Assembly: GCA_021806925.1 (NCBI GenBank)
Contig: JAKAPS010000004.1
Location: 1,586 to 65,585, forward strand
Direction of reading: 5' to 3'
Origin: a bacterium
GTDB taxonomy: Bacteria; Patescibacteriota; Dojkabacteria; JAKAPS01
DNA length: 64,000 nucleotides
Made by a program: the position numbers and the translations under genes. The first letter of the stretch is position 1, and each line of letters begins with the position of its first letter. Below, piece by piece: positions 1,572-62,311 of the stretch. Under the pieces are notes generated by a model that worked only from the letters and a program-made list of their open reading frames with translations, made no database searches and had not been told where the DNA came from.

Positions 1572-3834
1572 TCGTCTTAATAACGCTATAATCCTTAGTA
1601 TTTAATCCATATTGTATCAATAACTCAGTTAATGACCTGCTCATACCAAGGTTCTGATAAAATAATTTTCCAACTGTATAATCATTATTTACAACAAATA
1701 TGTTTTTACCCATTGTTAAGTAGCTAGTCTCCTTAGTTGTATCACTTGAATATAGTTGTGCTGCATATAGGTATATTTGAGGATCTGCATATTTATATCT
1801 TTTCAATATATCATTCATATCACCCTCTGCCTTGTTCGTCTGACCTTGGAAATACAATATCTGATTATTACTCAGCCTTATATACAAACTCTGACTATCT
1901 AATTTCATAGCACTGGCGTTATAGCTAACAAGCTGACTCATTGATAGCGGGGGAGTAGAATTTGTACCTTGACTTGAACTACTCAAACCTACTTGAACTA
2001 GGAAGTATGGGTAATATGCATCTATAGGATTAAATCTTATCAAACTCTCAATTGATTGAACCTGAGGAGCAATTGATGCTGTCTGTGATTGATTAACTAA
2101 ACTATTTAGTATTCCTTGGAACATTTGATATCCGACAAAGAAATATATTGATAAAATAAGGGATAGAAGGGAAATTACACTTACACTGTATGAAAAGACA
2201 TTTCCAGAATTATTAAAGAACCTGTCAATATTTAATATCCTTACTCCAATTGCTAATATAACAAAGAAGAGGAATGTCAACTCAATTACGTGCATTACTG
2301 GATAAAATAACATAAAGAGAATAAATACAAACAATACTAACCCAACCTCAAAGGATTGAGTTGATCTTGTATCCTTTGTAGTAAGCAAATTTAATGACAT
2401 TCTGAATGCCTTGTATATAAAGAATAGAAAGATTAGTCCACCAATAATACCAGTAGCACTAAACATCCATATAAACTCACTTCCAGTTGTTGTAAATACC
2501 TGCCATGGTGCTAATTCAAATGCCTGTGAAACACTCTTAAAGTTCCCAAGCCCTATACCTGTAAATATATATGATTTAAATACATTTAGAGCTTGAATAT
2601 AGTTGGATTCCATTAGAGCCATTGAAAAGTTCCTTTCATCCAGAAATATTGGGTTATATGCAACAGTAAAAGAGTGATTAGTTAGAATATATGAAAGTAT
2701 AATAGTAATAACTGCAAAACCAATCAAATATACTCTATTCTCAACCCATTTGAATCTATTTTCAACTACATCCTTCCAAAGTAGTAGTGACAACTCTATT
2801 CCAAATACAACATATGCAAATTTTGAATATGTTATATATATCCCAATAGATATTATTATGCTTGAAATTAAAAACACTAGTTTTCTCTTTCCCCTTATAC
2901 TGAATATAGATTGGAGAGAGAATGGGAATACAATTAAACCAAACAAAGCCTGAAATATATTAAGATTTAAAAATGGATACATTAAATAATTTGATGGAAT
3001 CAAATAATTTTTAGTTTTTAAGAAATTATATAAACTTAAAAACACTGTTTTCTGTGTAAAAACATTATTTGCAAATGATATCTGAAGATATGACAATATT
3101 ACATATATAAAGATGATGCCTGATACGACGCTAAGTGCATTGAAAAATGTCCTTCTTGATTTTCTCCCATGAAAAAAATCATATGAAAGAATAAAGAATA
3201 GACCATAACTAATTAATTCTATTGTGAAAAGAATTGAGTTATATTTATAAACTGAAAATATATCAGATACCAAAACAAAAAACATGAATGCAAAAAATAC
3301 ATATAAAAATGATTTTGATATATATAAATTTCCCCTTAAATTTCTCAAGAAGAAGAAACCGGAAGCTAATAATGCAACAGTAAATACCTTTGGTTCAGTT
3401 AGGCTGATTCCTCCAAAAAATGATAACGCAACTAGTGAAACAAAAAACAATGCAAAGTATATTTTCTCTATTGTAGTAAAAAAAACAAGAAATTTTCTTT
3501 TTGGCTTATCTTCATAACTTTGATATTCCTCTTTATCACTGACACTATCTTTTTTATCAATCTCAACTACTGTTATACTTTCTTCCTCAATAATGACAGG
3601 TTCTTGGATAATCAATTCCTCATTTTTTTTATCTGTATTATGTTTTGTGTTTTTCATATTCCCATGACCTTTTGTTTTATCACTAGCCAAAGCACTCTTT
3701 GTAGACTTCATTGTTTCCTTCTTTACTTTATCGCTTTGTATAGTACCCTTTGTATTCTCTTTTAAGATATTTTTGAGGTTATTCGTGCTTTTCTTTGATG
3801 TTTTTTTAGATTTATTTTCTTTCACTAAAGACAA
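1558..3834 (-). CDS. large polytopic membrane protein, O-antigen ligase/polymerase-like (Wzy_C-type). It has a Lys-rich disordered N-terminus and a C-terminal extracytoplasmic domain.
   Basis: 758 aa. About 130 K/E/T-rich N-terminal residues are followed by at least 10 predicted TM helices and a hydrophilic C-terminal roughly 200 aa. It lies in the glycan locus. Confidence 0.45.
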   Translation of the reverse strand: MSLVKENKSKKTSKKSTNNLKNILKENTKGTIQSDKVKKETMKSTKSALASDKTKGHGNMKNTKHNTDKKNEELIIQEPVIIEEESITVVEIDKKDSVSDKEEYQSYEDKPKRKFLVFFTTIEKIYFALFFVSLVALSFFGGISLTEPKVFTVALLASGFFFLRNLRGNLYISKSFLYVFFAFMFFVLVSDIFSVYKYNSILFTIELISYGLFFILSYDFFHGRKSRRTFFNALSVVSGIIFIYVILSYLQISFANNVFTQKTVFLSLYNFLKTKNYLIPSNYLMYPFLNLNIFQALFGLIVFPFSLQSIFSIRGKRKLVFLISSIIISIGIYITYSKFAYVVFGIELSLLLWKDVVENRFKWVENRVYLIGFAVITIILSYILTNHSFTVAYNPIFLDERNFSMALMESNYIQALNVFKSYIFTGIGLGNFKSVSQAFELAPWQVFTTTGSEFIWMFSATGIIGGLIFLFFIYKAFRMSLNLLTTKDTRSTQSFEVGLVLFVFILFMLFYPVMHVIELTFLFFVILAIGVRILNIDRFFNNSGNVFSYSVSVISLLSLILSIYFFVGYQMFQGILNSLVNQSQTASIAPQVQSIESLIRFNPIDAYYPYFLVQVGLSSSSQGTNSTPPLSMSQLVSYNASAMKLDSQSLYIRLSNNQILYFQGQTNKAEGDMNDILKRYKYADPQIYLYAAQLYSSDTTKETSYLTMGKNIFVVNNDYTVGKLFYQNLGMSRSLTELLIQYGLNTKDYSVIKTINSL

Positions 3835-4162: not shown

Positions 4163-5173
4163 TTACACTTCCTGCAATGGATGGAAGTGCTTATGAGCTT
4201 CATATGCAATCTTATCTGATGTGTGAAGGTATCTGTTTGTAGTTTGAAGCGATTCATGTCCTAACAGAATTTGAATAGCTCCAACATTTGCACCATTTTC
4301 TGCCAGGTAGGTTGCAAATCCATGCCTTAGAGAGTGAGCTGATGTAGGAACGATTATTCCAAGTAACCTTCTATATGTAGCAATTCTTTCTTGCAGGTAA
4401 TTAGGTGATATTCTTTCTGATAATCTGTGATTCCGTCCTCCTCTTGTGGAAAGAAATAGTGCCTTACGTGAATCATCTCCTCTTAATTTTAGGTATTCTA
4501 AAATATAGTGGGTTGCTCTTTCTGTAAGGTATACAAATCTTTGTTTTTTACCTTTACCCATTATATATATTTTACCAGTATCATCTATATTTTCTCTGTT
4601 TATACGTATTAATTCAGATATTCTCATGCCAGTTGAAAAAAGGACTTCAAGCATTGCTCTGTTTCTTGATGCAACATATGGATTCTTCTCAAATGTACTT
4701 GGGTATTCAATTAATTTTATTAGAGTATCAAGCTCTGCAACTTGTGCTTCCTTTCTCTCCATCTTAATCAACTTTATACTGCTTGATGATATAGGGCTTG
4801 AGAAATCAAAATCGGATAAGAATTTAAAATATGATCGTAATGCACTAAGCATTCTGTTTACACTTCTTGATGCAAGTTTTTCACCGTAATCCTTTTTTTT
4901 ATGCTCACAAAATTCCTTATATTCCTCAATATATTCAGTTTCATGAGCTTTAAAAAATTCGCTTATCTTACCCAAATACAATCCGTCCCTAAGAAATCCT
5001 TTATACATTGTTATTGTCAGTTTTGTTATACCATTAAATTCAATATGATTTAAAAGCAAATACATTTCAAAAACAAATAGATCTCTCCTATAATTGTATA
5101 TAGTTTCCCTTGAGTAATTTTGATTTAATAACTCTATCAAGAACTCTTCTTTTTTATCTAATACTGTATTCAT
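4163..5173 (-). CDS. xerC: tyrosine site-specific recombinase, XerC/XerD family
   Basis: The C-terminus carries the catalytic signature RHGFATYLAENGANVGAIQILLGHESLQTTNRYLH (R..HxxR...Y). The N-terminus is the SAM-like core-binding domain. Confidence 0.85.
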   Translation of the reverse strand: MNTVLDKKEEFLIELLNQNYSRETIYNYRRDLFVFEMYLLLNHIEFNGITKLTITMYKGFLRDGLYLGKISEFFKAHETEYIEEYKEFCEHKKKDYGEKLASRSVNRMLSALRSYFKFLSDFDFSSPISSSSIKLIKMERKEAQVAELDTLIKLIEYPSTFEKNPYVASRNRAMLEVLFSTGMRISELIRINRENIDDTGKIYIMGKGKKQRFVYLTERATHYILEYLKLRGDDSRKALFLSTRGGRNHRLSERISPNYLQERIATYRRLLGIIVPTSAHSLRHGFATYLAENGANVGAIQILLGHESLQTTNRYLHTSDKIAYEAHKHFHPLQEV

Positions 5174-10516: not shown

Positions 10517-11666
10517 ACAAAAAAAATATAAAGTATATATTGATGCACAACCGTTGACTCCACCAAGAAGCGGAGTAGGGGAGTACCTAAAAAATATACT
10601 CAAAAGGCTTGAAAATAATCCAAGGGTTTATAAGTACACATTTAAGATGGGGCTAATGAGAGCTTTCTATAAAAAACCAATCGACCTTGATATTAATGAT
10701 ATAAAAACACCAGTTGTAATTGAGAGAATCATTCCAAAATCAGTATATATTCTACTTGCCGTTCTTGGTATAAAGGTTCCATTAGAGATATTCTTTGGAT
10801 TTAATGATATTTATTTTTTTGAAAACTTTACAACATTTAAAAAGATAAAGGGGAAAAGCATCACTGTAATACATGATTTATCCTACCTTAAATTCCCGGA
10901 TACATTATCAAAAAATAACAGATTATCATTAAACTACTCAGTAAAGGATTCTATAAAAAATGCTGATGTGATTATTGCAATATCGAACTCAGTAAAATCA
11001 GAATTAGAAGAAACATTTGATAGAAAGGATTTTAGAGTTATATACCCTATAATAGAGTTTGGGGAGAATTTCACTTCACATGAGTTTGAAGAAGGGTTTA
11101 GCGATAACGCTACAAAATATCTGAGAAAACATGATCTAGAGAAGGATAAATACATATTTTTTATAGGGAATATGGAACCAAGAAAGAACATTGTAAACCT
11201 AATAAATGGGTATGTTAAAAGTGATGGGTTAAGAAACAATATAAAATTGGTACTAGCTGGAGCTAACGCTTGGAATAATTCAGAGATACTCAAATCAATA
11301 AAAGAAAATAACATCATAAGCCTTGGAAAAGTTACTTCAGAAGAGAAGGCAATCCTATTTAAGAATTGCTTATTTGGTATAAATGTTTCAATGTATGAAG
11401 GATTTGGCATGCCTGTAGTTGAATCATTCTCATTTGGAAAATCAATGCTTCTATCGGATATTCCAATATTTGAAGAGGTTTCAGAATATGATTTCTATAC
11501 AGATCATACTGATACAGAAGATATAGGGAAGAAGATAAATACACTCATATATGATAATGAATTAAGACAAAGGCTAGAAACAAAGAGTAAAGATAGATTT
11601 AAATATTTTAACTCTCTTCATCAGGATGATGAATTATTGGATATTTTTGATGAATTAACTAAATAA
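10509..11666 (+). CDS. glycosyltransferase family 1 (GT4-type)
   Basis: EGFGMPVVESFSFGKSMLLSDIP and FIGNMEPRKN motifs. It is a paralog of 13095-14225. Confidence 0.8.
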   Translation: MDKQKKYKVYIDAQPLTPPRSGVGEYLKNILKRLENNPRVYKYTFKMGLMRAFYKKPIDLDINDIKTPVVIERIIPKSVYILLAVLGIKVPLEIFFGFNDIYFFENFTTFKKIKGKSITVIHDLSYLKFPDTLSKNNRLSLNYSVKDSIKNADVIIAISNSVKSELEETFDRKDFRVIYPIIEFGENFTSHEFEEGFSDNATKYLRKHDLEKDKYIFFIGNMEPRKNIVNLINGYVKSDGLRNNIKLVLAGANAWNNSEILKSIKENNIISLGKVTSEEKAILFKNCLFGINVSMYEGFGMPVVESFSFGKSMLLSDIPIFEEVSEYDFYTDHTDTEDIGKKINTLIYDNELRQRLETKSKDRFKYFNSLHQDDELLDIFDELTK

Positions 11667-11684
11667 AAAAACTAATTCGTATCT

Positions 11685-13037
11685 TTATGTTACATTGATA
11701 GAATTCAATATTTCATTCATAGTACCAAGTGCAAGTGGATTAAATTCTCTTATCTGTGAGACTAGCTCTTGATTATTTGATATTACATTTAAAAATTCAT
11801 CCCATACACTCTGTTTCGCTGAAACTCTTAAGGATATATCAATAGCATTTACATAATGTGGCAACTTACCTTTTTCTGGACTTTCTGAATATAGTTTTTG
11901 AGCTAGTTTAGCTTGATCCTCAATTAATTTCCTATGTGTGCTTGGATTCGTAGTTGTCATCTCAGCACTATCAAACCAGCATATAGGGATTGGTGTGATC
12001 GAATTTTCATCACCCATCATTCTTACTTTTAACAGTAATTCTACATCAAATGAGAATCCTCTTATACATAAATTTCCATCTTTAATAAGCCTGCGAACAC
12101 AATCAGGAGACCAAGCCTTAAATCCGCATTGCGTATCTAAGGGAATGAATCCTCTTCCAAACAGGGTCTCTCTTAAATACCTTGCAACTTGTGCTCTAAT
12201 ATTCCTATCCGCAGTAATTAACATAACTGATTTTTGCAAACGTCTTGAACCAGCAGCAACTAATGTATCAGGGTTATTTACAAATGCATCTAATAATAAT
12301 CCAATTTGTCCAAGATCAACAGATAAATCCGCATCAGTTGTTACGATTATATCGTTACTTGATTTAGAATTCGAACATGATAATGCCATCCCGTATTCGA
12401 CAGCTGCAGCTTTAACTGTACTCTTTGGTATAGTTGCTCCATCTAGTGAATGTAAAATTACTTCATCATCAATATTAGCCTTATTTTCTATTGCTTTACC
12501 TAAGAAATTAACATAGAACTTACTACGTAATAAAGGATCACCATTTATTATAGCTTCAGCCAGTACTCCTGATGGTGGATCATCATTACACTGATCATCT
12601 ATCAAGGTTACTACATAATCTTTGTTTGAGCCTTTAAAAAGCCATTCAAGCTGTAAATACTTTTGTCTTAAAAAATCCTCCCCAAACTCATTCTCTTCCT
12701 TTCTTTGCATCCTTGTACCTTCGTGATACATTGGAATAACAATACTAATCAATCTTTTTTTTGGATCTGACATTAGTATCAATTTTGATATGGCAAGCTT
12801 CAACGTATATGCAACAAAAACATTAGGATCCACTTCAAAGGATAATTTTTGTTCTAATTGCCGCAAAAGACTTATATCTGAACTATATGAAATAATGGTA
12901 TCTGCATAGGATCTAGCCTCCTGCATAAATTCTGGGTCAGTCATATTTTTTATTGAATTATATTTATATCCTTGTTCTTTTAATAATTTTTCAACACTCA
13001 TACAGCATATAATAATACTCTTAACATTTGAATTCAA
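11685..13037 (-). CDS. glycosyltransferase family 2 with an N-terminal extension
   Basis: LISIVIPMYHEG matches the xSIVIPxYNE motif. TTDADLSVD is a DxD motif. CGFKAW is the GT2 catalytic-base region. Confidence 0.6.
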   Translation of the reverse strand: MNSNVKSIIICCMSVEKLLKEQGYKYNSIKNMTDPEFMQEARSYADTIISYSSDISLLRQLEQKLSFEVDPNVFVAYTLKLAISKLILMSDPKKRLISIVIPMYHEGTRMQRKEENEFGEDFLRQKYLQLEWLFKGSNKDYVVTLIDDQCNDDPPSGVLAEAIINGDPLLRSKFYVNFLGKAIENKANIDDEVILHSLDGATIPKSTVKAAAVEYGMALSCSNSKSSNDIIVTTDADLSVDLGQIGLLLDAFVNNPDTLVAAGSRRLQKSVMLITADRNIRAQVARYLRETLFGRGFIPLDTQCGFKAWSPDCVRRLIKDGNLCIRGFSFDVELLLKVRMMGDENSITPIPICWFDSAEMTTTNPSTHRKLIEDQAKLAQKLYSESPEKGKLPHYVNAIDISLRVSAKQSVWDEFLNVISNNQELVSQIREFNPLALGTMNEILNSINVT

Positions 13038-13094
13038 ATATCTACATAAATTAATGTATTTCTAGTATAATCCAAACAGATATTTACAAGATTT

Positions 13095-14225
13095 ATGAGA
13101 AGCAAGGTAGATGATCAATTATCTGAAAGTAAAGTTAACAAACGTAGATCAATATTTATTGATGCATATGCATTAGTTCCGCCAATAAGTGGAGTAGGAT
13201 ATTACCTAAAGAGTATTATTGATAATCTTGTAAAATCAAATAAGTATGATATTGAGCTTGGTACTTTATCTTCATTTTATTCTAATGAGAGGAAAATTAA
13301 CTATGAGAATAAAGATGTAAAGCAAAAAATAGTCAAATTTCTACCTAGATCAATATACATACTATTAATGAGATTAAATATTGCACCTCCAATTGATATA
13401 TTCTTTGGAAGGCATGATCTCTATTTTTTTGAGAATTACGTATGCTACCCAGTAAAATCAGGTAAGACTATAACAGTAATTCATGATTTAACATTCAAAA
13501 AGTTTCCTCATGCTGTATTCTTCATAAATAGAATGAATCTAAATTTCATAGTGCCGTACACTTTGAATAAATCAGATGTAATAGTAACAGTATCGAACTC
13601 AATTAAAAAGGAAATATATAGATATTACTCTCCTAAGAAAAAGATACATGTAATATATCCGTCAATTGATAAGTCACTTGAAGAAGATGATAGCCTACTG
13701 AAAACATACTCTCTTAAGAAGGATGAATATATATATTTTGTTGGAAATCTTGAACCAAGAAAAAATTTAATCAACCTTATAAAAGCGTTTAATGAAGCAA
13801 AATTGAAGAATATGAAATTAGTAATTAGTGGAAATAAAGGATGGAAAAATAACAAAATAATGGAATTACTAAAATCAGAGAATGTATTACATATTGGAAG
13901 CCCAACAGAGAGTCAAAAGAATTCACTTATAAAAAACTGCCTATTCTTATCAATTGTATCTATATATGAAGGATTCGGAATGCCAATAATTGAAGGATTT
14001 AAATACAATAAAGCAGTTTTAATGTCTGATATTGAATCATTCCGGGAGATATCTAAAATGAACTTTTTTTGTGACCCGCATAATGTTAATGATATTAGGA
14101 AAAAAATGGAATCACTCTACTACGACACTAGGTTAAGACAAAAGTTAGAAAGACTAGGTACAGAAAGATACAAATACTTTTCTTCAATTGACCAATCTCA
14201 TGAACTAGAAGATATATTTAAATAA
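13095..14225 (+). CDS. glycosyltransferase family 1 (GT4-type)
   Basis: EGFGMPIIEGFKYNKAVLMSDI and FVGNLEPRKN motifs. It is a paralog of 10509-11666. Confidence 0.8.
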   Translation: MRSKVDDQLSESKVNKRRSIFIDAYALVPPISGVGYYLKSIIDNLVKSNKYDIELGTLSSFYSNERKINYENKDVKQKIVKFLPRSIYILLMRLNIAPPIDIFFGRHDLYFFENYVCYPVKSGKTITVIHDLTFKKFPHAVFFINRMNLNFIVPYTLNKSDVIVTVSNSIKKEIYRYYSPKKKIHVIYPSIDKSLEEDDSLLKTYSLKKDEYIYFVGNLEPRKNLINLIKAFNEAKLKNMKLVISGNKGWKNNKIMELLKSENVLHIGSPTESQKNSLIKNCLFLSIVSIYEGFGMPIIEGFKYNKAVLMSDIESFREISKMNFFCDPHNVNDIRKKMESLYYDTRLRQKLERLGTERYKYFSSIDQSHELEDIFK

Positions 14226-56731: not shown

Positions 56732-56774
56732 AAAAATACTTGACACAAAACTTGACAGAAGGCTTGACAGAAAT
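56732..56774 (+). repeat. 41-bp element with three TTGACA hexamers at 12-bp spacing (acTTGACAcaaaacTTGACAgaaggcTTGACAg). It lies upstream of fic and is copy 1 of a direct repeat pair.
   Basis: Read directly. It also provides a -35 box for fic. Confidence 0.8.
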
Positions 56775-56791
56775 ATATACTGACAATACAA

Positions 56792-57805
56792 ATGTTTTTA
56801 CCTAAATATGAATATACAAACACAATTATATCCAACACGAATACAATAGAAAGACTTTATGGACAATTGGAAAGTATACATATTCCAAAGAATTTAATGC
56901 TCAATCTTCAAAATGAGAATATAATCACATCAACATATTCATCAAACAAAATTGAAGGCAATCCGTTAACCCATTTGGAAGTAACAAATTTGTTATTAGG
57001 TGAAAGAGTCCCAGTAAACAGAGCAGAAAAAGAAATAACTAATTATTTCGATATTTTGAAAAGTATCAACAAAAGTATTGATAAAGAGATTAATATTCAA
57101 CTTATGCTTGAATTTCATAATAAGTTGTTAACAGGTATAAATGATGAGATAAAAGGTAAGATAAGAAATGTCGAAGTTGTTGTTGGGAGATTTGATGAGA
57201 ATTCTCAATTAATAGCAAGACATATACCTCCATTCTCTACAAGAGATAAAATATCAGAGACACTTAATGACTTGTTTTCATGGGTCAATACAGAAAATGA
57301 TATTGTTAAAGTACTAAAAATCGGTATATTTCATCATCAATTTGAATATATACATCCTTTTGAAGATGGCAATGGTAGAATAGGTAGATTACTTTCATCA
57401 TTGCTTTTCCTAAAATACAATTACGCAATAAACAAGTATTTCATACTTGATGACTATTATGATATTGATAAGATTGAATATTCAAATAAATTACATTCTG
57501 CAGATTTTGGTGATGAGACTAAATGGCTTGAATACTTCACAAATGGTATAATTTATTCACTACAATCATCAATAGATAAATTAAATAAAGGATTATCAAA
57601 GTTATCAATTTCATTAAGACCAACAAAGAAGGAAGAAGAAGTTTTGCATCTTATTCAAAAGTACCATGAAATAACTTCACAAAATATATCATCAGAAATG
57701 GGAATTTCAAGACAACAAGCATTCAATCTTCTTAAATCTCTTACAGAGAAAGGATATATTGAAAGAAGAAATAAATCTAAGAATACATATTATGTCCTCT
57801 TATAG
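56792..57805 (+). CDS. fic: Fic-family protein (adenylyltransferase-type fold) with an N-terminal inhibitory SxxxEG motif and a C-terminal winged HTH
   Basis: HPFEDGNGRIGR is the HPFx(D/E)GNGR motif. SSNKIEGN matches (S/T)xxxE(G/N). The C-terminal segment LHLIQKYHEITSQNISSEMGISRQQAFNLLKSLTEKGYI is a wHTH. Confidence 0.9.
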   Translation: MFLPKYEYTNTIISNTNTIERLYGQLESIHIPKNLMLNLQNENIITSTYSSNKIEGNPLTHLEVTNLLLGERVPVNRAEKEITNYFDILKSINKSIDKEINIQLMLEFHNKLLTGINDEIKGKIRNVEVVVGRFDENSQLIARHIPPFSTRDKISETLNDLFSWVNTENDIVKVLKIGIFHHQFEYIHPFEDGNGRIGRLLSSLLFLKYNYAINKYFILDDYYDIDKIEYSNKLHSADFGDETKWLEYFTNGIIYSLQSSIDKLNKGLSKLSISLRPTKKEEEVLHLIQKYHEITSQNISSEMGISRQQAFNLLKSLTEKGYIERRNKSKNTYYVLL

Positions 57806-57879
57806 CGAAGTTAAAAAGTTGCATAATATATACTACCCTAACATATATAAACTCTAATCATGTTATTTATTAATGTATT

Positions 57880-57921
57880 AAAAATACTTGACACAAAACT
57901 TGACAGAAAGCTTGACAAAAG
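57880..57921 (+). repeat. second copy of the triple-TTGACA 41-bp element (39/41 identical), 75 bp downstream of fic
   Basis: Read directly. Confidence 0.8.
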
Positions 57922-57932
57922 ATTGCTATAAA

Positions 57933-59276
57933 TCACACTTGTCTTACCTTTGATTTTGAGCATACTAATTTAATTAGTTCTTCTCTTGTATTTAATTCCG
58001 GATCTTCTAGAACCTTAGATAGAAGCGTTTCAAGTTCCTCCCCTATTTCCTTTCCACTATAGCCAAGCTGTTTTAAGTCGTCTCCATTAATTGCAAGATC
58101 TTTTCTTGTTAATACATTACTCTTTCTTTTTACTTCTTCTATTCTTTTCTTAAATGATAAAAGATTATCATATGTTGTATTAAGAGGGTTTGACTTTATA
58201 TCTGCTTCTCTTAGTAGAAATAGCTCATTCAGGAAATCCTCTGATGGTATTTTTGAAAGAAATCTTCTTACACTAGAATCCTTCCAATCCTCAGAATAAT
58301 TGAACATATGCATCTTTATTAAAAGGATTATTTTCAAAATATCCTTTTTAGGGAATTTCAATCTCTTTAATATATCTTTAGCCATATCGCTTCCAACTAT
58401 CTCATGTGAATAGAAATGCTCCCCCTCTTTGGTTCTTGGTTTACCAATATCATGAAGTAGAGATACAAGCCTTACATCTTTTTGCGCCTTATCACACGAA
58501 TGTATAAGGTGCATATATACAGTTTCTGTATGGAATTTGTTCTGTTCAATATGAATTCCCTCAAGAAGTTCAGGCATAATTACCTCCAATATACCTGACT
58601 CCCTTAATAACTCAATTCCATAACTTGGAATTGGTGAATCGTTCAATATTTTTATAAGTTCATCCCTTATTCTTTCTACTGAGATTTTTAATATATCCTT
58701 TGCAAAATATTTTATTGCATCAAATGTATCACTATCAATTGAAAATTCAAGAATAGAAGCAAAACGTACTGCTCTCATACTTCTTAAATAGTCCTCAAGC
58801 ATTCTTTCCTTTGGGTTACCAGTTGCCTTAACTAACTTCTTTTGTATATCATCTACACCTCCATAGAGATCTATAACCTTATCCAAGTTATTTTTAACAT
58901 ATTCCTCAATAGTTTTGTAATTGCCAAAATCATCCCCAATTTCAAGTGCCATTGAATTTATTGTAAAATCTCTACGCTTCAAATCATCATATATATTGTC
59001 TGAATATGAAACATCATCGGGGTGTCTTGAATCTGAATAAACCCTATCGGATCTAAAGGTAGTTATTTGAATATTATCTACGACAATCGTACCAAACTTT
59101 GCCCCAACATCATTTGCTTTAGGGAATATTTCCATCAACTCATCTGGATGAGCTGAAGTAGCTAAATCAATATCATGAGTAGCTCTTCCTATTATTGAAT
59201 CTCTAATATATCCGCCTACAACATACAAACTAAATCCGTTTTGTTTGAGAGCAGAGATAATATTGTCCATCTTCAA
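57933..59276 (-). CDS. cca: CCA-adding tRNA nucleotidyltransferase (PolyA_pol head plus HD domain)
   Basis: GGYIRDSIIGRATHDIDLA nucleotidyltransferase head and HD domain LLHDIGKP. Both tRNAs in the window lack an encoded CCA, which is consistent with this call. Confidence 0.8.
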   Translation of the reverse strand: MKMDNIISALKQNGFSLYVVGGYIRDSIIGRATHDIDLATSAHPDELMEIFPKANDVGAKFGTIVVDNIQITTFRSDRVYSDSRHPDDVSYSDNIYDDLKRRDFTINSMALEIGDDFGNYKTIEEYVKNNLDKVIDLYGGVDDIQKKLVKATGNPKERMLEDYLRSMRAVRFASILEFSIDSDTFDAIKYFAKDILKISVERIRDELIKILNDSPIPSYGIELLRESGILEVIMPELLEGIHIEQNKFHTETVYMHLIHSCDKAQKDVRLVSLLHDIGKPRTKEGEHFYSHEIVGSDMAKDILKRLKFPKKDILKIILLIKMHMFNYSEDWKDSSVRRFLSKIPSEDFLNELFLLREADIKSNPLNTTYDNLLSFKKRIEEVKRKSNVLTRKDLAINGDDLKQLGYSGKEIGEELETLLSKVLEDPELNTREELIKLVCSKSKVRQV

Positions 59277-59314
59277 TTCCTAGTATATTATACAACAATT
59301 TATATACAAACATT

Positions 59315-59390
59315 AATTTATTTAAGAATATAGCAACTTCTGTTATTTTTCATATCAATTACCTCAAATCCTTTTTCGATTGATAACTTA
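59315..59390. repeat. 76-bp exact copy of the cysS 3' end plus 15 bp of its downstream flank. It is the left direct repeat bracketing the ATPase cassette.
   Basis: Identical to 60836-60911. A further 13-bp match (ttaaagagtaatc) follows after a short indel. Confidence 0.85.
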
Positions 59391-59534
59391 AAGAGTAATC
59401 TTAAAAAAGAGACTACTTTGAAATATATTCAGAAAATAGGAATTTGAGTAATCAGATGCAGATATCACTTCATTTAATCGACAAATTGTAATATACACTT
59501 GACAAATTAACCCCTTATTTTGTAAAGTATACCT

Positions 59535-60712
59535 ATGTATATACACCGCTTTGTAGAAAAATCATTAGAAAACCTTTTAAGGGATCCAAAATTTTTATTC
59601 TCCTTGGGGCACGTCAAGTAGGGAAAACCACCCTTATTGAACCCTTAGTTCGAAAGAGAATTGGATTATTACTCAACTGCGATATTGATATTGATAAATC
59701 AAGATTGTTAGCTTCTAGTTCGCTACACCCCTTTGAAGCTATGAAATTTTTTGGTAATCCAAAACTTCTAGTCATTGATGAAGCACAAAACTTACCAGAA
59801 ATTGGAAGAATTGTAAAAGGTTGGTATGATGCTCGTGTTACTACAAAGATAATACTACTTGGGTCATCAAGCCTTAATTTATTAGACCTTACTGCAGAAC
59901 CTCTTACTGGAAGAAATGAAAAAATCTATTTAACACCACTGTTGTTTAGTGAAATTCTCAAGAATCAATCATGGCTTACTCCAGAAGTAACAAAATCGAT
60001 TCTTGAAGAACAATTTAAAGATCAAATTCAAACCTTGCTTTTACAACAAATGGTATATGGTAGCTATCCGGAAGCAATTACAACAGTTGATAAAGAGAGG
60101 TATCTACTAAATTTGACATCCGATTATTTACTCAAAGACGTCTTACAAAACGGACTGGTAAAATCTCCTGAGCCAGTAAAAAAACTTTTATCTATGATTG
60201 CATATCAAGCAGGAAATGAAGTATCTATTAATGAACTTGCTATGAATTTACACACCTCTAGACAAACAATAGAGCGATATATAGAACTACTTGAAAGGTC
60301 GTATGTAATTTTTAAAGTACATGCATTTAGTACAAACCAACGAAAGGAAATTGTTAAAAACTCAAAAATATTCTTTTGGGATACAGGTGTACGTAATGCA
60401 CTTCTTAAAGAATTTTCTCTTTCACCGTTCAGGTCTGATATAGGTTCACTGTTTGAAAACTGGGTTGTTTCAGAAGTAGCCAAACTTAATTTAATAAAAG
60501 GAGATAAAAATAATATTTACTTCTGGCGCAAAAGAGATGGCAGTGAAGTGGACTTAATTGTAAAAGGAACAAATACATTCAAGGCATATGAAATGAAGTG
60601 GTCAAAACTAAACATAACACAATCAGCAAAAAGTTTTTCTAATACCTACAATATACCAGTTAAAGTTATCACAAAAGATACAATACTGGACTTGTTGTGG
60701 GAAGAAAAATAG
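59535..60712 (+). pseudogene. AAA+ ATPase of the DUF4143 type (Walker A GARQVGKTTL), disrupted by a frameshift in an A5T5 homopolymer (ccAAAAATTTTTatt) at about 59588-59597
   Basis: The ATG at 59535 encodes MYIHRFVEKSLENLLRDPKFLF and then stops. The rest (ILLGARQVGKTTLIEPL...) is in the -1 frame with no in-frame ATG. The track ORF 59705-60712 is the 3' part, starting at TTG. Confidence 0.6.
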
Positions 60713-60835
60713 AGCTCCTAGATATATTTACAGATATAAGAAAAATTATTCAGTAATATAACAGATGGCTTATTTTCCTTTTTGTATATACAGTTGTGAT
60801 ACTATTCCATAACGCATATTTAATATTTATACAAA

Positions 60836-60911
60836 TATACAAACATTAATTTATTTAAGAATATAGCAACTTCTGTTATTTTTCATATCAATTACCTCAA
60901 ATCCTTTTTCT
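60836..60911. repeat. right direct repeat, the native 3' end of cysS
   Basis: Identical to 59315-59390. Confidence 0.85.
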
Positions 60912-62311
60912 TCTAAATCCTGTTTTAATTTATCACTTAAAGAGTAATCCCCGATATTTTTCGCTTCACTCCTTCTATTAATCAGTTCGTTATACTCCTC
61001 ATCCTTACTATTTGATGCTTCAACCATTAAATTAAAATCAAAACCCAATACACTTCCTATTGCATATATATTAGATATCTTTTCTTTAGATGCCATATCA
61101 TTCCTTTTTAAAATGTCATGAATTAATGCAATAGCTTTTGATGTATTAATATCATCTTCCAGGCACTCTTTTAATTTAACTAAATATTCATTTGAAAACA
61201 TATCATACACTGGAGATACACTGCCGTGAGTACTTGTACTCCGTAATGGAGTGGCAGAATCATCCTCTGCAAATAATCTTATCTGCCTTATTATTCCATA
61301 TATAGCTCTGTACGCATTAAGAATTGCTTCTTTAGAGAAATCTATCATGCTCCTATAATTTCCTGATAGAAATAGATATCGTAAAGCTTCAGGAGCATAT
61401 TTTGTGTTAGCTTTTAATTCAGAATTTAATATACTTTCAACATCATCAAGTGTATAGAAATTGTTTTTGCTTTTACTCATCTTTTCACCATTTATTGTTA
61501 TAAAAGCATTATGCAACCAATAATGTACAACTTGTTTTCCTGCTATTGAATCTGATTGAGCTATTTCATTTGTATGATGAGGAAATATCAAATCACTTCC
61601 GCCAGTATGAATGTCAAATTCATCTCCTAAGTATTTCATACTCATTGCACTACATTCAATATGCCAACCAGGATAACCTTTTCCCCATGGAGAATCCCAC
61701 AGCATTTGGTGTGTCGGATCATCAAGCTGCCATAATCTGAAATCCTTTTGCGACTTCTTTTCTACAGATTCATTTAGATTATCCCTTGAATTATCCATAA
61801 GTTCATCTGTTTTCTGTCCAGATAGGTTATAGTAAAGAGGAAATTTAGTTACATCAAAATATATTGCCTCATCTGTCCTATATGCATATCCTTTTTCTAA
61901 AAGTATCTCGATTAATTTTATCTGCTCTTGAATATGATCGGTAGCTTTAGCTAAAACACTTGGTGGTAATATATTTAATCTATCCCTATCTTTTAAAAAT
62001 ACATCAGTATATTTTTTTGCAATTGCCCATACATCTAAATTATCAATTTTTGCTTGTTTTTCCAGTTTATCTTCTCCCTTATCTATATCCCCTACAATAT
62101 GACCTACATCCGTTATATTCATTACATTGAATACATCATATCCTAGAAATCTGAAACTTCTAACCAAAATATCAGCAAAAATGAATGCACGCCAATTGCC
62201 TATTGTAGGGTTTGAATATACAGTTGGTCCACAGCTATATATCTTAACCATTCCTTTAACAATTGGTTTAAATTCTTCTAGCTGTTTTGATAATGTGTTG
62301 TATAATTTCAT
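60851..62311 (-). CDS. cysS: cysteinyl-tRNA synthetase whose HIGH motif reads TIGN
   Basis: CGPTVY...TIGNWRA in place of HIGHAR. KMSKS is present as GEKMSKSKNN. The zinc ligand WHIECS is present. Confidence 0.85.
   Translation of the reverse strand: MKLYNTLSKQLEEFKPIVKGMVKIYSCGPTVYSNPTIGNWRAFIFADILVRSFRFLGYDVFNVMNITDVGHIVGDIDKGEDKLEKQAKIDNLDVWAIAKKYTDVFLKDRDRLNILPPSVLAKATDHIQEQIKLIEILLEKGYAYRTDEAIYFDVTKFPLYYNLSGQKTDELMDNSRDNLNESVEKKSQKDFRLWQLDDPTHQMLWDSPWGKGYPGWHIECSAMSMKYLGDEFDIHTGGSDLIFPHHTNEIAQSDSIAGKQVVHYWLHNAFITINGEKMSKSKNNFYTLDDVESILNSELKANTKYAPEALRYLFLSGNYRSMIDFSKEAILNAYRAIYGIIRQIRLFAEDDSATPLRSTSTHGSVSPVYDMFSNEYLVKLKECLEDDINTSKAIALIHDILKRNDMASKEKISNIYAIGSVLGFDFNLMVEASNSKDEEYNELINRRSEAKNIGDYSLSDKLKQDLEEKGFEVIDMKNNRSCYILK

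Follow-up and report, generated by a model that had tools for sequence, protein, structure and literature searches.

The 64,000-nt stretch of DNA considered here (the window; positions 1,586 to 65,585 of contig JAKAPS010000004.1) comes from an uncultured member of the Patescibacteria (candidate phyla radiation). In it, a single frameshifted ATPase gene of PADLOC family PDC-S01 is located between cysS, encoding cysteinyl-tRNA synthetase, and cca, encoding the CCA-adding enzyme, and is bracketed by an exact direct repeat of the 3' end of cysS. We observed that such bracketing recurs around homologous ATPase genes, with locus-specific repeats flanking the gene at 14 of 67 non-redundant loci, and it is this recurrence within the ATPase family that is new here. 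The reading that we favor, and hold with moderate confidence, is that a one-gene cassette was inserted by a homology-driven process independent of any integrase, and that the repeats are the scar of this recombination.

The repeat in the window is 76 nt long and exact, with copies at 59302-59377 and 60835-60910 and a spacing of 1533 nt. The right copy is made up of the 19 last codons of cysS (57 nt), the stop codon (60851-60853) and the 16 nt that follow it, and the left copy sits between cca and the ATPase gene as an orphan tail with a translation that ends in ...EKGFEVIDMKNNRSCYILK*. Both the repeat and the orphan tail had been pointed out in an original prediction made from the sequence alone, and both were recovered by us, although the positions given there were off by 13 nt for the left copy (59315-59390) and by 1 nt for the right copy (60836-60911). 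With up to 3 mismatches allowed, the window contains only these 2 copies (0 expected from 100 shuffles), and the repeat was found in 0 of 196 loci taken from other contigs; a generic repeat at unrelated loci, the outcome named in the prediction as speaking against it, was thus not observed. The homology continues inward, because after a 16-nt gap in the left copy the sequence 59378-59400 matches cysS 60927-60949 at 20 of 23 positions. The further 13-nt match noticed earlier on both sides, ttaaagagtaatc (59388-59400 and 60937-60949), is indeed present and belongs to this extension. The 16 nt missing from the orphan copy (60911-60926) correspond to one slippage unit between AAATCCT(T/G)TTT repeats, and since the gap equals the spacing of two such repeats, an ordinary slippage deletion in the orphan copy accounts for it. 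The 3 mismatches of the 23-nt extension are all non-synonymous and resemble decay. Between the repeats lie 1457 nt (59378-60834) that hold only a promoter and the frameshifted ATPase gene, which agrees with the cassette of about 1.45 kb, the TTGACA box at 59499 and the lack of an internal integrase gene that had been reported for this segment.

An assembly artefact is unlikely to be behind this structure. The contig is ENA ERZ27237364 k141_626898, a MEGAHIT assembly with a final k-mer of 141, and because this k-mer is longer than the 76-nt repeat, the repeat is spanned by single k-mers. The same arrangement is carried by three long contigs from separate records. In addition, a Logan unitig of 1517 nt from a separate run (SRR13206618) is identical to window positions 59348-60864. 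It consists of the unique 1457 nt plus 30 nt of the repeat at each end, as expected from a k=31 graph, and this run therefore holds both inner junctions. The same short Logan contig (L089) was also considered as a free circle, and this was rejected because its 1517 nt are just the k=31 unitig.

Gene order in relatives supports an ancestral arrangement in which cysS and cca were adjacent, and the ATPase gene is an insertion between them. Of 81 cysS loci fetched, the order recR-cysS-cca is kept in only the two nearest relatives (L087 and L002). In both, cca directly follows cysS, with 2 nt between the gene calls in L087, and there is no ATPase gene. A contiguous junction of this kind had been proposed as a check on the insertion, as had the possibility that all relatives carry the ATPase, and the former is what these two genomes show. 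They share only 44-49% cysS identity with the window and are distant stand-ins for the uninterrupted site, the nearest cysS among 5.8 billion proteins being 49% identical and the best in GTDB species representatives 44%. The 447-aa cca translation was not on record in an exact-protein look-up. The ATPase itself has relatives at 83%, 81% and 80% identity, and at 72% in Ktedonobacteraceae and 65% in Verrucomicrobiae (names as given by the source). With its nearest non-self relative at 83% and other phyla at 65-72%, as against 49% for the nearest cysS, the ATPase moves horizontally. The cassette has a GC content of 32% and a third-position GC content of 22%, matching the host genes, and judging from this match and from the still-identical repeats, we suggest that the transfer was recent and that the donor was similar in composition and probably related.

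For the survey of homologous genes, the 800 nt upstream of each ATPase homologue were aligned with the 800 nt downstream, using loci from a metagenome scan and from exact-protein look-ups. It covered 67 non-redundant ATPase loci, with the window excluded, and a single scoring threshold of at least 30 was applied. Flanking direct repeats reached this threshold at the 14 loci mentioned above, and at 11 of the 49 loci with at least 400 nt on both sides. For other open reading frames (ORFs) in the same loci the count was 3 of 154 (Fisher p = 6e-6 versus ATPase loci), and for control ORFs from the cysS loci and the window it was 2 of 559 (p = 7e-13), which makes bracketing of the ATPase gene about 10 times commoner than that of neighboring ORFs. 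Mismatched flank pairs scored at most 15, and the inverted-orientation control at most 17. At the 14 loci the repeats measure 45-190 nt, their copies are 74-98% identical, and the spacing is 1.29-1.85 kb. What they consist of differs from locus to locus: a UvrD-type helicase gene (L099) and a membrane-protein gene (L082) contribute their 5' ends, an epimerase (L108), a cytidylyltransferase (L103) and a methyltransferase gene (L102) their 3' ends, and elsewhere the repeat is terminator-like intergenic DNA. Only at one locus (L098) is the target context that of a tRNA or tmRNA; there the repeats hold a tRNA-like 3' fragment beside a tRNA-Gly gene, from which the fragment does not derive. Between the left repeat and the ATPase start codon there are 41-338 nt, enough room for a promoter, and the right repeat starts 0-10 nt past the stop codon at 7 of the 14 loci. 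In the closest relative (83%; L177, ENA sample ERZ27256799) the repeat is the cassette's own promoter-leader, present at 67-161 and 1776-1870 (95 nt, about 95% identical). Its second copy follows a DUF6922 gene, and unrelated sequence begins 9 nt before the place where the ATG would be. One further candidate, P0005, was examined as a cassette present in two contexts and was rejected, the difference being an adjacent IS1595 insertion. Viral contigs yielded only 7 weak ATPase relatives, none with repeats, and in the literature on DUF4143, COG1373, PDC-S01 and repeat-flanked defence genes we found no description of repeat-bracketed cassettes of the PDC-S01 family.

The coding repeats at three of these loci (L108, L099 and L082) look like different alleles of the target gene, and not like duplications made at insertion. 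At L108 the orphan copy can be aligned with the C-terminus of the intact gene over 94 aa at 56% identity, in frame to the stop codon. Copy differences at the three loci fall on codon positions 1, 2 and 3 in 18, 9 and 34 cases, respectively (chi-square p = 4e-4). The third-position bias and the in-frame tail indicate that each copy evolved as part of a functional gene in a genome of its own before recombination joined them. Inside these otherwise diverged repeats there are exact blocks of 73 nt (L108) and 41 nt (L099), next to the 76 nt of the window, and such blocks fit a crossover or a conversion tract within the repeat. RecA pairing has a minimum of roughly 25-30 nt, and all three blocks are long enough for it.

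The limits of the cassettes were found to be variable. DNA homology between the window and two related cassettes (L082 and L083) starts at 59476 or 59483 and ends at about 60708. More generally, cassettes that are 76-96% identical at the DNA level occupy unrelated sites, lie between unrelated repeats and have ragged ends; three rumen cassettes with 93-96% identity share the promoter and the ORF, with limits of -132/-247 and +49/+120 in different pairings. No conserved junction or cassette-end motif was found across the cassettes. Terminal inverted repeats were not found either (best inverted match of the cassette ends 7, shuffle mean 8.3), the repeat length varies from 41 to about 190 nt, and no transposase was detected, so that this is not a transposon or insertion sequence (IS). 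Nor is it an integron cassette, the 76-nt repeat being cysS coding sequence that lacks an attC hairpin (minimum free energies of -1.2 and -0.8 kcal/mol, z-scores of +0.55 and +1.35) and has no integron integrase to go with it.

Bracketing by direct repeats is also seen for an unrelated gene family. On the far side of cca, the window carries a Fic gene that matches PADLOC SoFic (E = 2e-51) and has its own 41-nt direct repeats, 56732-56772 and 57880-57920 (39/41), each of which holds three TTGACA boxes. Flanking repeats were found around Fic-type genes elsewhere as well, namely around a Fic homologue in L180 (63 nt) and around a Fic/Bro-N gene beside another ATPase in L141 (2518-3396; 46 nt). 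The occurrence of bracketed Fic genes in three contexts favors a general host-recombination route over an ATPase-specific enzyme. According to the gene calls, Fic is absent from the nearest relative (L087), and the view that cca-cysS is a small hotspot of foreign DNA, put forward on account of the adjoining Fic cassette, is thus borne out. In L087 the interval between cca and a beta-CASP RNase gene (10931-13950) contains small ORFs and an rve-family transposase but no Fic, meaning that the region downstream of cca is variable in both genomes.

Homology-driven insertion would have proceeded as follows. The incoming DNA would consist of the cassette and about 115 nt of a cysS 3' end, and this cysS stretch would recombine with the end of the chromosomal cysS, the repeats being the two recombinant junctions. 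The likely event would be a Campbell-type one, in which a circular or ends-in copy undergoes a single reciprocal crossover; a one-sided variant, homology-facilitated illegitimate recombination followed by gene conversion, could give the same result. One copy would then complete cysS, and the other would be left orphaned upstream of cca, decaying through the 16-nt slippage deletion and the 3 substitutions. The reaction was most likely catalyzed by the host's homologous recombination, and an integrase encoded by the cassette or nearby would not be needed. The 76-nt identity should also allow the cassette to loop out as a circle and to re-insert wherever the same cysS end exists. It should be said that we infer the circular or ends-in intermediate, the dependence on RecA and the excision.

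Several observations weigh against this account. The repeats are lacking at 79% of the ATPase homologue loci, and the family-specific enrichment, together with the right repeat that abuts the stop codon at 7 of 14 loci, is not fully explained by passive recombination and hints at a more specific process. The two copies in the window do not differ at all, and their allelic origin is carried over from the other loci, and the mismatches of the extension are equally compatible with an in-situ duplication of at least 115 nt. Exact-protein look-ups with cysS, cca and the ATPase as queries yielded no insert-free cysS-cca junction of the same species and no circular junction, and the three long contigs of this species all carry the insert.

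The original prediction had explained the same geometry by site-specific insertion into the cysS terminus, with the cassette as a decayed or trans-mobilized remnant of an integrative element. In its elaborated form, this explanation holds that a cargo-only remnant with an attP that mimics the cysS 3' end was mobilized in trans, now or once, by a tyrosine or serine integrase. The attL/attR-like arrangement it started from is real, since one copy completes cysS and the other is orphaned beside cca, and restoration of the target gene end is what such integration leaves behind. Integrases that target gene ends, as in the case of phage 21 and e14 at icd, also leave allelic duplications with an identity block, and at L098 the repeats adjoin a tRNA gene and contain the tRNA-like 3' fragment. 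What makes us regard this explanation as unlikely is the lack of a detected enzyme and of a shared site. The only recombinase detected in the 64-kb window is an Xer-like tyrosine recombinase at 4163-5173 (-), 54 kb away; it matches XerC and XerD best, in neither case reaching the equivalog cut-off. A phmmer search with six query proteins, which has limited sensitivity, detected no recombinase inside any of the 14 repeat-bounded units, and within the 4-kb flanks its only match was a serine recombinase in L082, at a distance of about 4.1 kb from the left repeat. There is also no attachment core or target conserved among related elements: L082 and L177, with proteins of 81-83% identity, and 13 other loci differ, and closely related cassettes with unrelated repeats, unrelated targets and ragged ends are unlike what a conserved attachment site would produce. 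Finally, the same cargo would have to be stranded independently many times. Integrase-mediated insertion at the cysS end was therefore not upheld, and insertion of a one-gene cassette by homology fits the evidence better than a decayed integrative-element remnant.

A different alternative is centered on the ATPase itself, of which the window holds no intact expressible ORF. From the start codon at 59535 there are 28 codons to a stop, and the family-typical ...ILLGARQVGKTT... resumes in the -1 frame from an A4T5 run (59588-59596) in which one base was lost; the sequence is the same in four contigs. The Walker A motif GARQVGKT lies just past the frameshift, which thus divides it from the start codon, and gene callers give only a 323-aa product without Walker A. 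With a -1 slip on A AAA within the run, the product would be fully colinear with the family. Programmed frameshifting (-1) at A AAA TTT was considered less likely, there being no canonical heptamer and no supporting evidence, and the gene was treated as a pseudogene. The ORF contains AAA_14, HTH_11 and DUF4143 domains, the last of which has been placed in the PD-(D/E)XK nuclease superfamily (PMC3424549). A relative that is 81% identical to the window ATPase (P0003) matches the PADLOC PDC-S01 model PDLC04789 over its full length (E = 2e-113, residues 1-387). In an AlphaFold model (predicted local distance difference test, pLDDT, 78) the best resemblance was to archaeal Walker-type ATPases, ORC1/Cdc6 and STAND NTPases, and nothing recombinase-like was among the structural resemblances of this model. 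PDC-S01 has been described as an ATPase fused to a PD-(D/E)XK nuclease and as the fourth most common prokaryotic defence candidate, still unvalidated (PMC12988326). In the only experimental test of PDC-S01 that we found in the literature, one representative in E. coli B gave no protection against T4, T5 or T7 and was outside the four candidates that did protect (bioRxiv 10.1101/2024.09.26.614923). A defence role of the family is thus unproven.

This leads to the possibility that the ATPase-nuclease gene of PDC-S01 could itself be an autonomous mobile element with a single gene, or that the promoter-plus-ORF unit is mobilized by a separate machinery. In either case, insertion would produce a long target duplication, for example through widely staggered nicks or replicative template switching. 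The roughly 10-fold enrichment over neighboring genes speaks for such an element. So does the fact that the unit common to different contexts is approximately promoter plus ORF, with the right repeat starting 0-10 nt after the stop codon at half of the loci. The combination of an ORC/Cdc6/STAND-like AAA+ module, a winged helix-turn-helix (wHTH) and a PD-(D/E)XK nuclease domain in one protein, and the lack of protection in the phage test, point in the same direction. However, the third-position differences and the 94-aa in-frame tail at L108 imply that the repeat copies were not identical at birth, and the range of repeat lengths, the absence of a conserved terminal sequence and of terminal inverted repeats, the ragged ends, the similar bracketing of unrelated Fic genes and the frameshift in the window copy all argue against an autonomous element, which we consider rather improbable. 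Along the same lines, and as a doubtful proposal, PDC-S01, and perhaps further cassettes of one gene like SoFic, could represent an unrecognized class of integrase-less mobile cassettes, each comprising promoter, ORF and a piece of the previous neighbor and inserting with a long local duplication, with the AAA+/nuclease protein possibly promoting breakage or recombination. If this were true, the enrichment of such genes in 'defence islands' could partly reflect selfish mobility instead of defence.

An assembly chimera, in which for instance a small circle had been threaded into the chromosome, and a local duplication of unrelated origin are both very improbable explanations, for even though the integrated form and a circular-plus-empty mixture are indistinguishable in a k=31 graph, with the Logan unitig stopping 30 nt into each copy, the final k-mer of the contig exceeds the repeat, the three long contigs agree, the homology runs past the exact block with an indel, unlike a graph artefact, and the same geometry was found at fourteen more loci in other assemblies made with other assemblers.

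The features of the cassette and its surroundings are listed in the table below. In the conserved promoter/operator of the cassette, the motifs GACAAATT and TTTTGTAAA recur around the -35 box (TTGACA). A promoter/operator with the same motifs is conserved in related cassettes (L177 105-161 and 1814-1870, L082 5601-5664, L098 3950-4000), and it may be an autoregulatory site for the ATPase's own wHTH domain. No terminator was detected in the segment between the ATPase stop codon and the right repeat. Other repeat-flanked genes were seen next to ATPase genes: in L096 a 195-aa ORF lies between tRNA-3'-like sequences (2150-2240 and 3621-3710; 91 nt, 82% identical), and in L142 a gene with a phage-lysozyme domain lies between terminator-hairpin repeats (990-1058 and 3315-3383; 69 nt, 90% identical). 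Elsewhere in the window a 67-nt repeat (11140-11206 and 13717-13783; 78% identical) flanks the ORF 11685-13001, and this may reflect paralogous flanking genes rather than an insertion scar.

Table. Positions in the window of the ATPase cassette, its bracketing repeats and the adjoining genes.
Feature	Position	Strand	Remarks
SoFic-type Fic cassette	56732..57920	+	Fic gene at 56792-57805
cca (CCA-adding enzyme / PolyA_pol + HD)	57933..59276	-	
Left repeat copy, orphan cysS 3' end (19 codons, stop, 16 nt)	59302..59377	.	25 nt upstream of cca start
Decayed inward extension of the orphan copy	59378..59400	.	Out of frame with the cysS tail
Leader segment inside the repeats	59401..59475	+	Not common to related cassettes
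Conserved promoter/operator	59476..59534	+	-35 TTGACA 59499-59504; -10-like TAAAGT 59523-59528
ATPase N-terminal 28-codon stub (MYIHRFVEKSLENLLRDPK...)	59535..59621	+	Cut off by the -1 frameshift
ATPase main reading frame, AAA_14-HTH-DUF4143 (PD-(D/E)XK)	59591..60712	+	PADLOC family PDC-S01
Segment between ATPase stop and right repeat, 122 nt	60713..60834	.	Not common to related cassettes
Right repeat copy, functional cysS 3' end + 16 nt downstream	60835..60910	.	
cysS, cysteinyl-tRNA synthetase	60851..62311	-	Intact, 486 aa; tRNA-synt_1e E = 7e-97
cysS codons homologous to the decayed extension	60911..60949	-	

The window presents a clean and recent case in which one of the minimal-genome Patescibacteria gained an accessory gene beside essential genes, left these undamaged, and then let the acquired gene decay. 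Of greater importance, if it holds, is the wider result that about a fifth of the loci with the abundant PDC-S01 gene have target-derived repeats around this gene alone, with copies resembling alleles of different genomes. There would then be a simple recombinase-free route between homologous sites for one-gene defence cassettes. The presence of such genes in 'islands' without visible mobile-element machinery would be explained, and a gene-sized insert next to a duplicated end of the neighboring gene could serve as a signature of recent acquisitions. The result is also relevant to the question of whether PDC-S01 serves in defence in the first place. With respect to that family, the window ORF has AAA_14, HTH_11 and DUF4143 domains and an 81% relative that matches the model over its full length, but the window copy is frameshifted before Walker A.

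It is known that phage 21 and e14 integrate in the 3' end of icd and leave a substitute gene end or duplication. Compared with prophage or island integration of the icd type and with att-flanked remnants that hold only cargo (cis-mobilizable elements, CIMEs), the window is similar in that the repeats come from the target 3' end, that one copy is part of the intact gene and the other is an orphan, and that an identity block is joined to a diverged arm. It differs in having no integrase in or near the unit and in consisting of a single 1.2-kb gene unit, and among its relatives the repeats and targets are unrelated and the ends are not fixed. Integron cassettes and IS26 translocatable units are likewise single-gene units within direct repeats and are able to excise in circular form and to insert again where a copy of the repeat is present; the repeats described here, however, are ordinary local sequence such as gene ends, with no attC-like hairpin and no conserved sequence, and neither an integron integrase nor an IS is involved. 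A further parallel is found in the arrays of orphan 3' ends in Rhs, contact-dependent inhibition (CDI) and type VI secretion system (T6SS) effector-immunity loci, for which insertion by homology-facilitated illegitimate recombination or of the Campbell type has been proposed (PMC5361080). These arrays share with our cassettes a homology anchor at a conserved gene end, a resident copy that is displaced but retained, variable junctions, and the lack of a dedicated recombinase. In contrast to the variable toxin tips of those systems, the cargo here is a free-standing defence-type gene beside arbitrary housekeeping genes, and the exact blocks point to crossover or conversion within the repeat itself.

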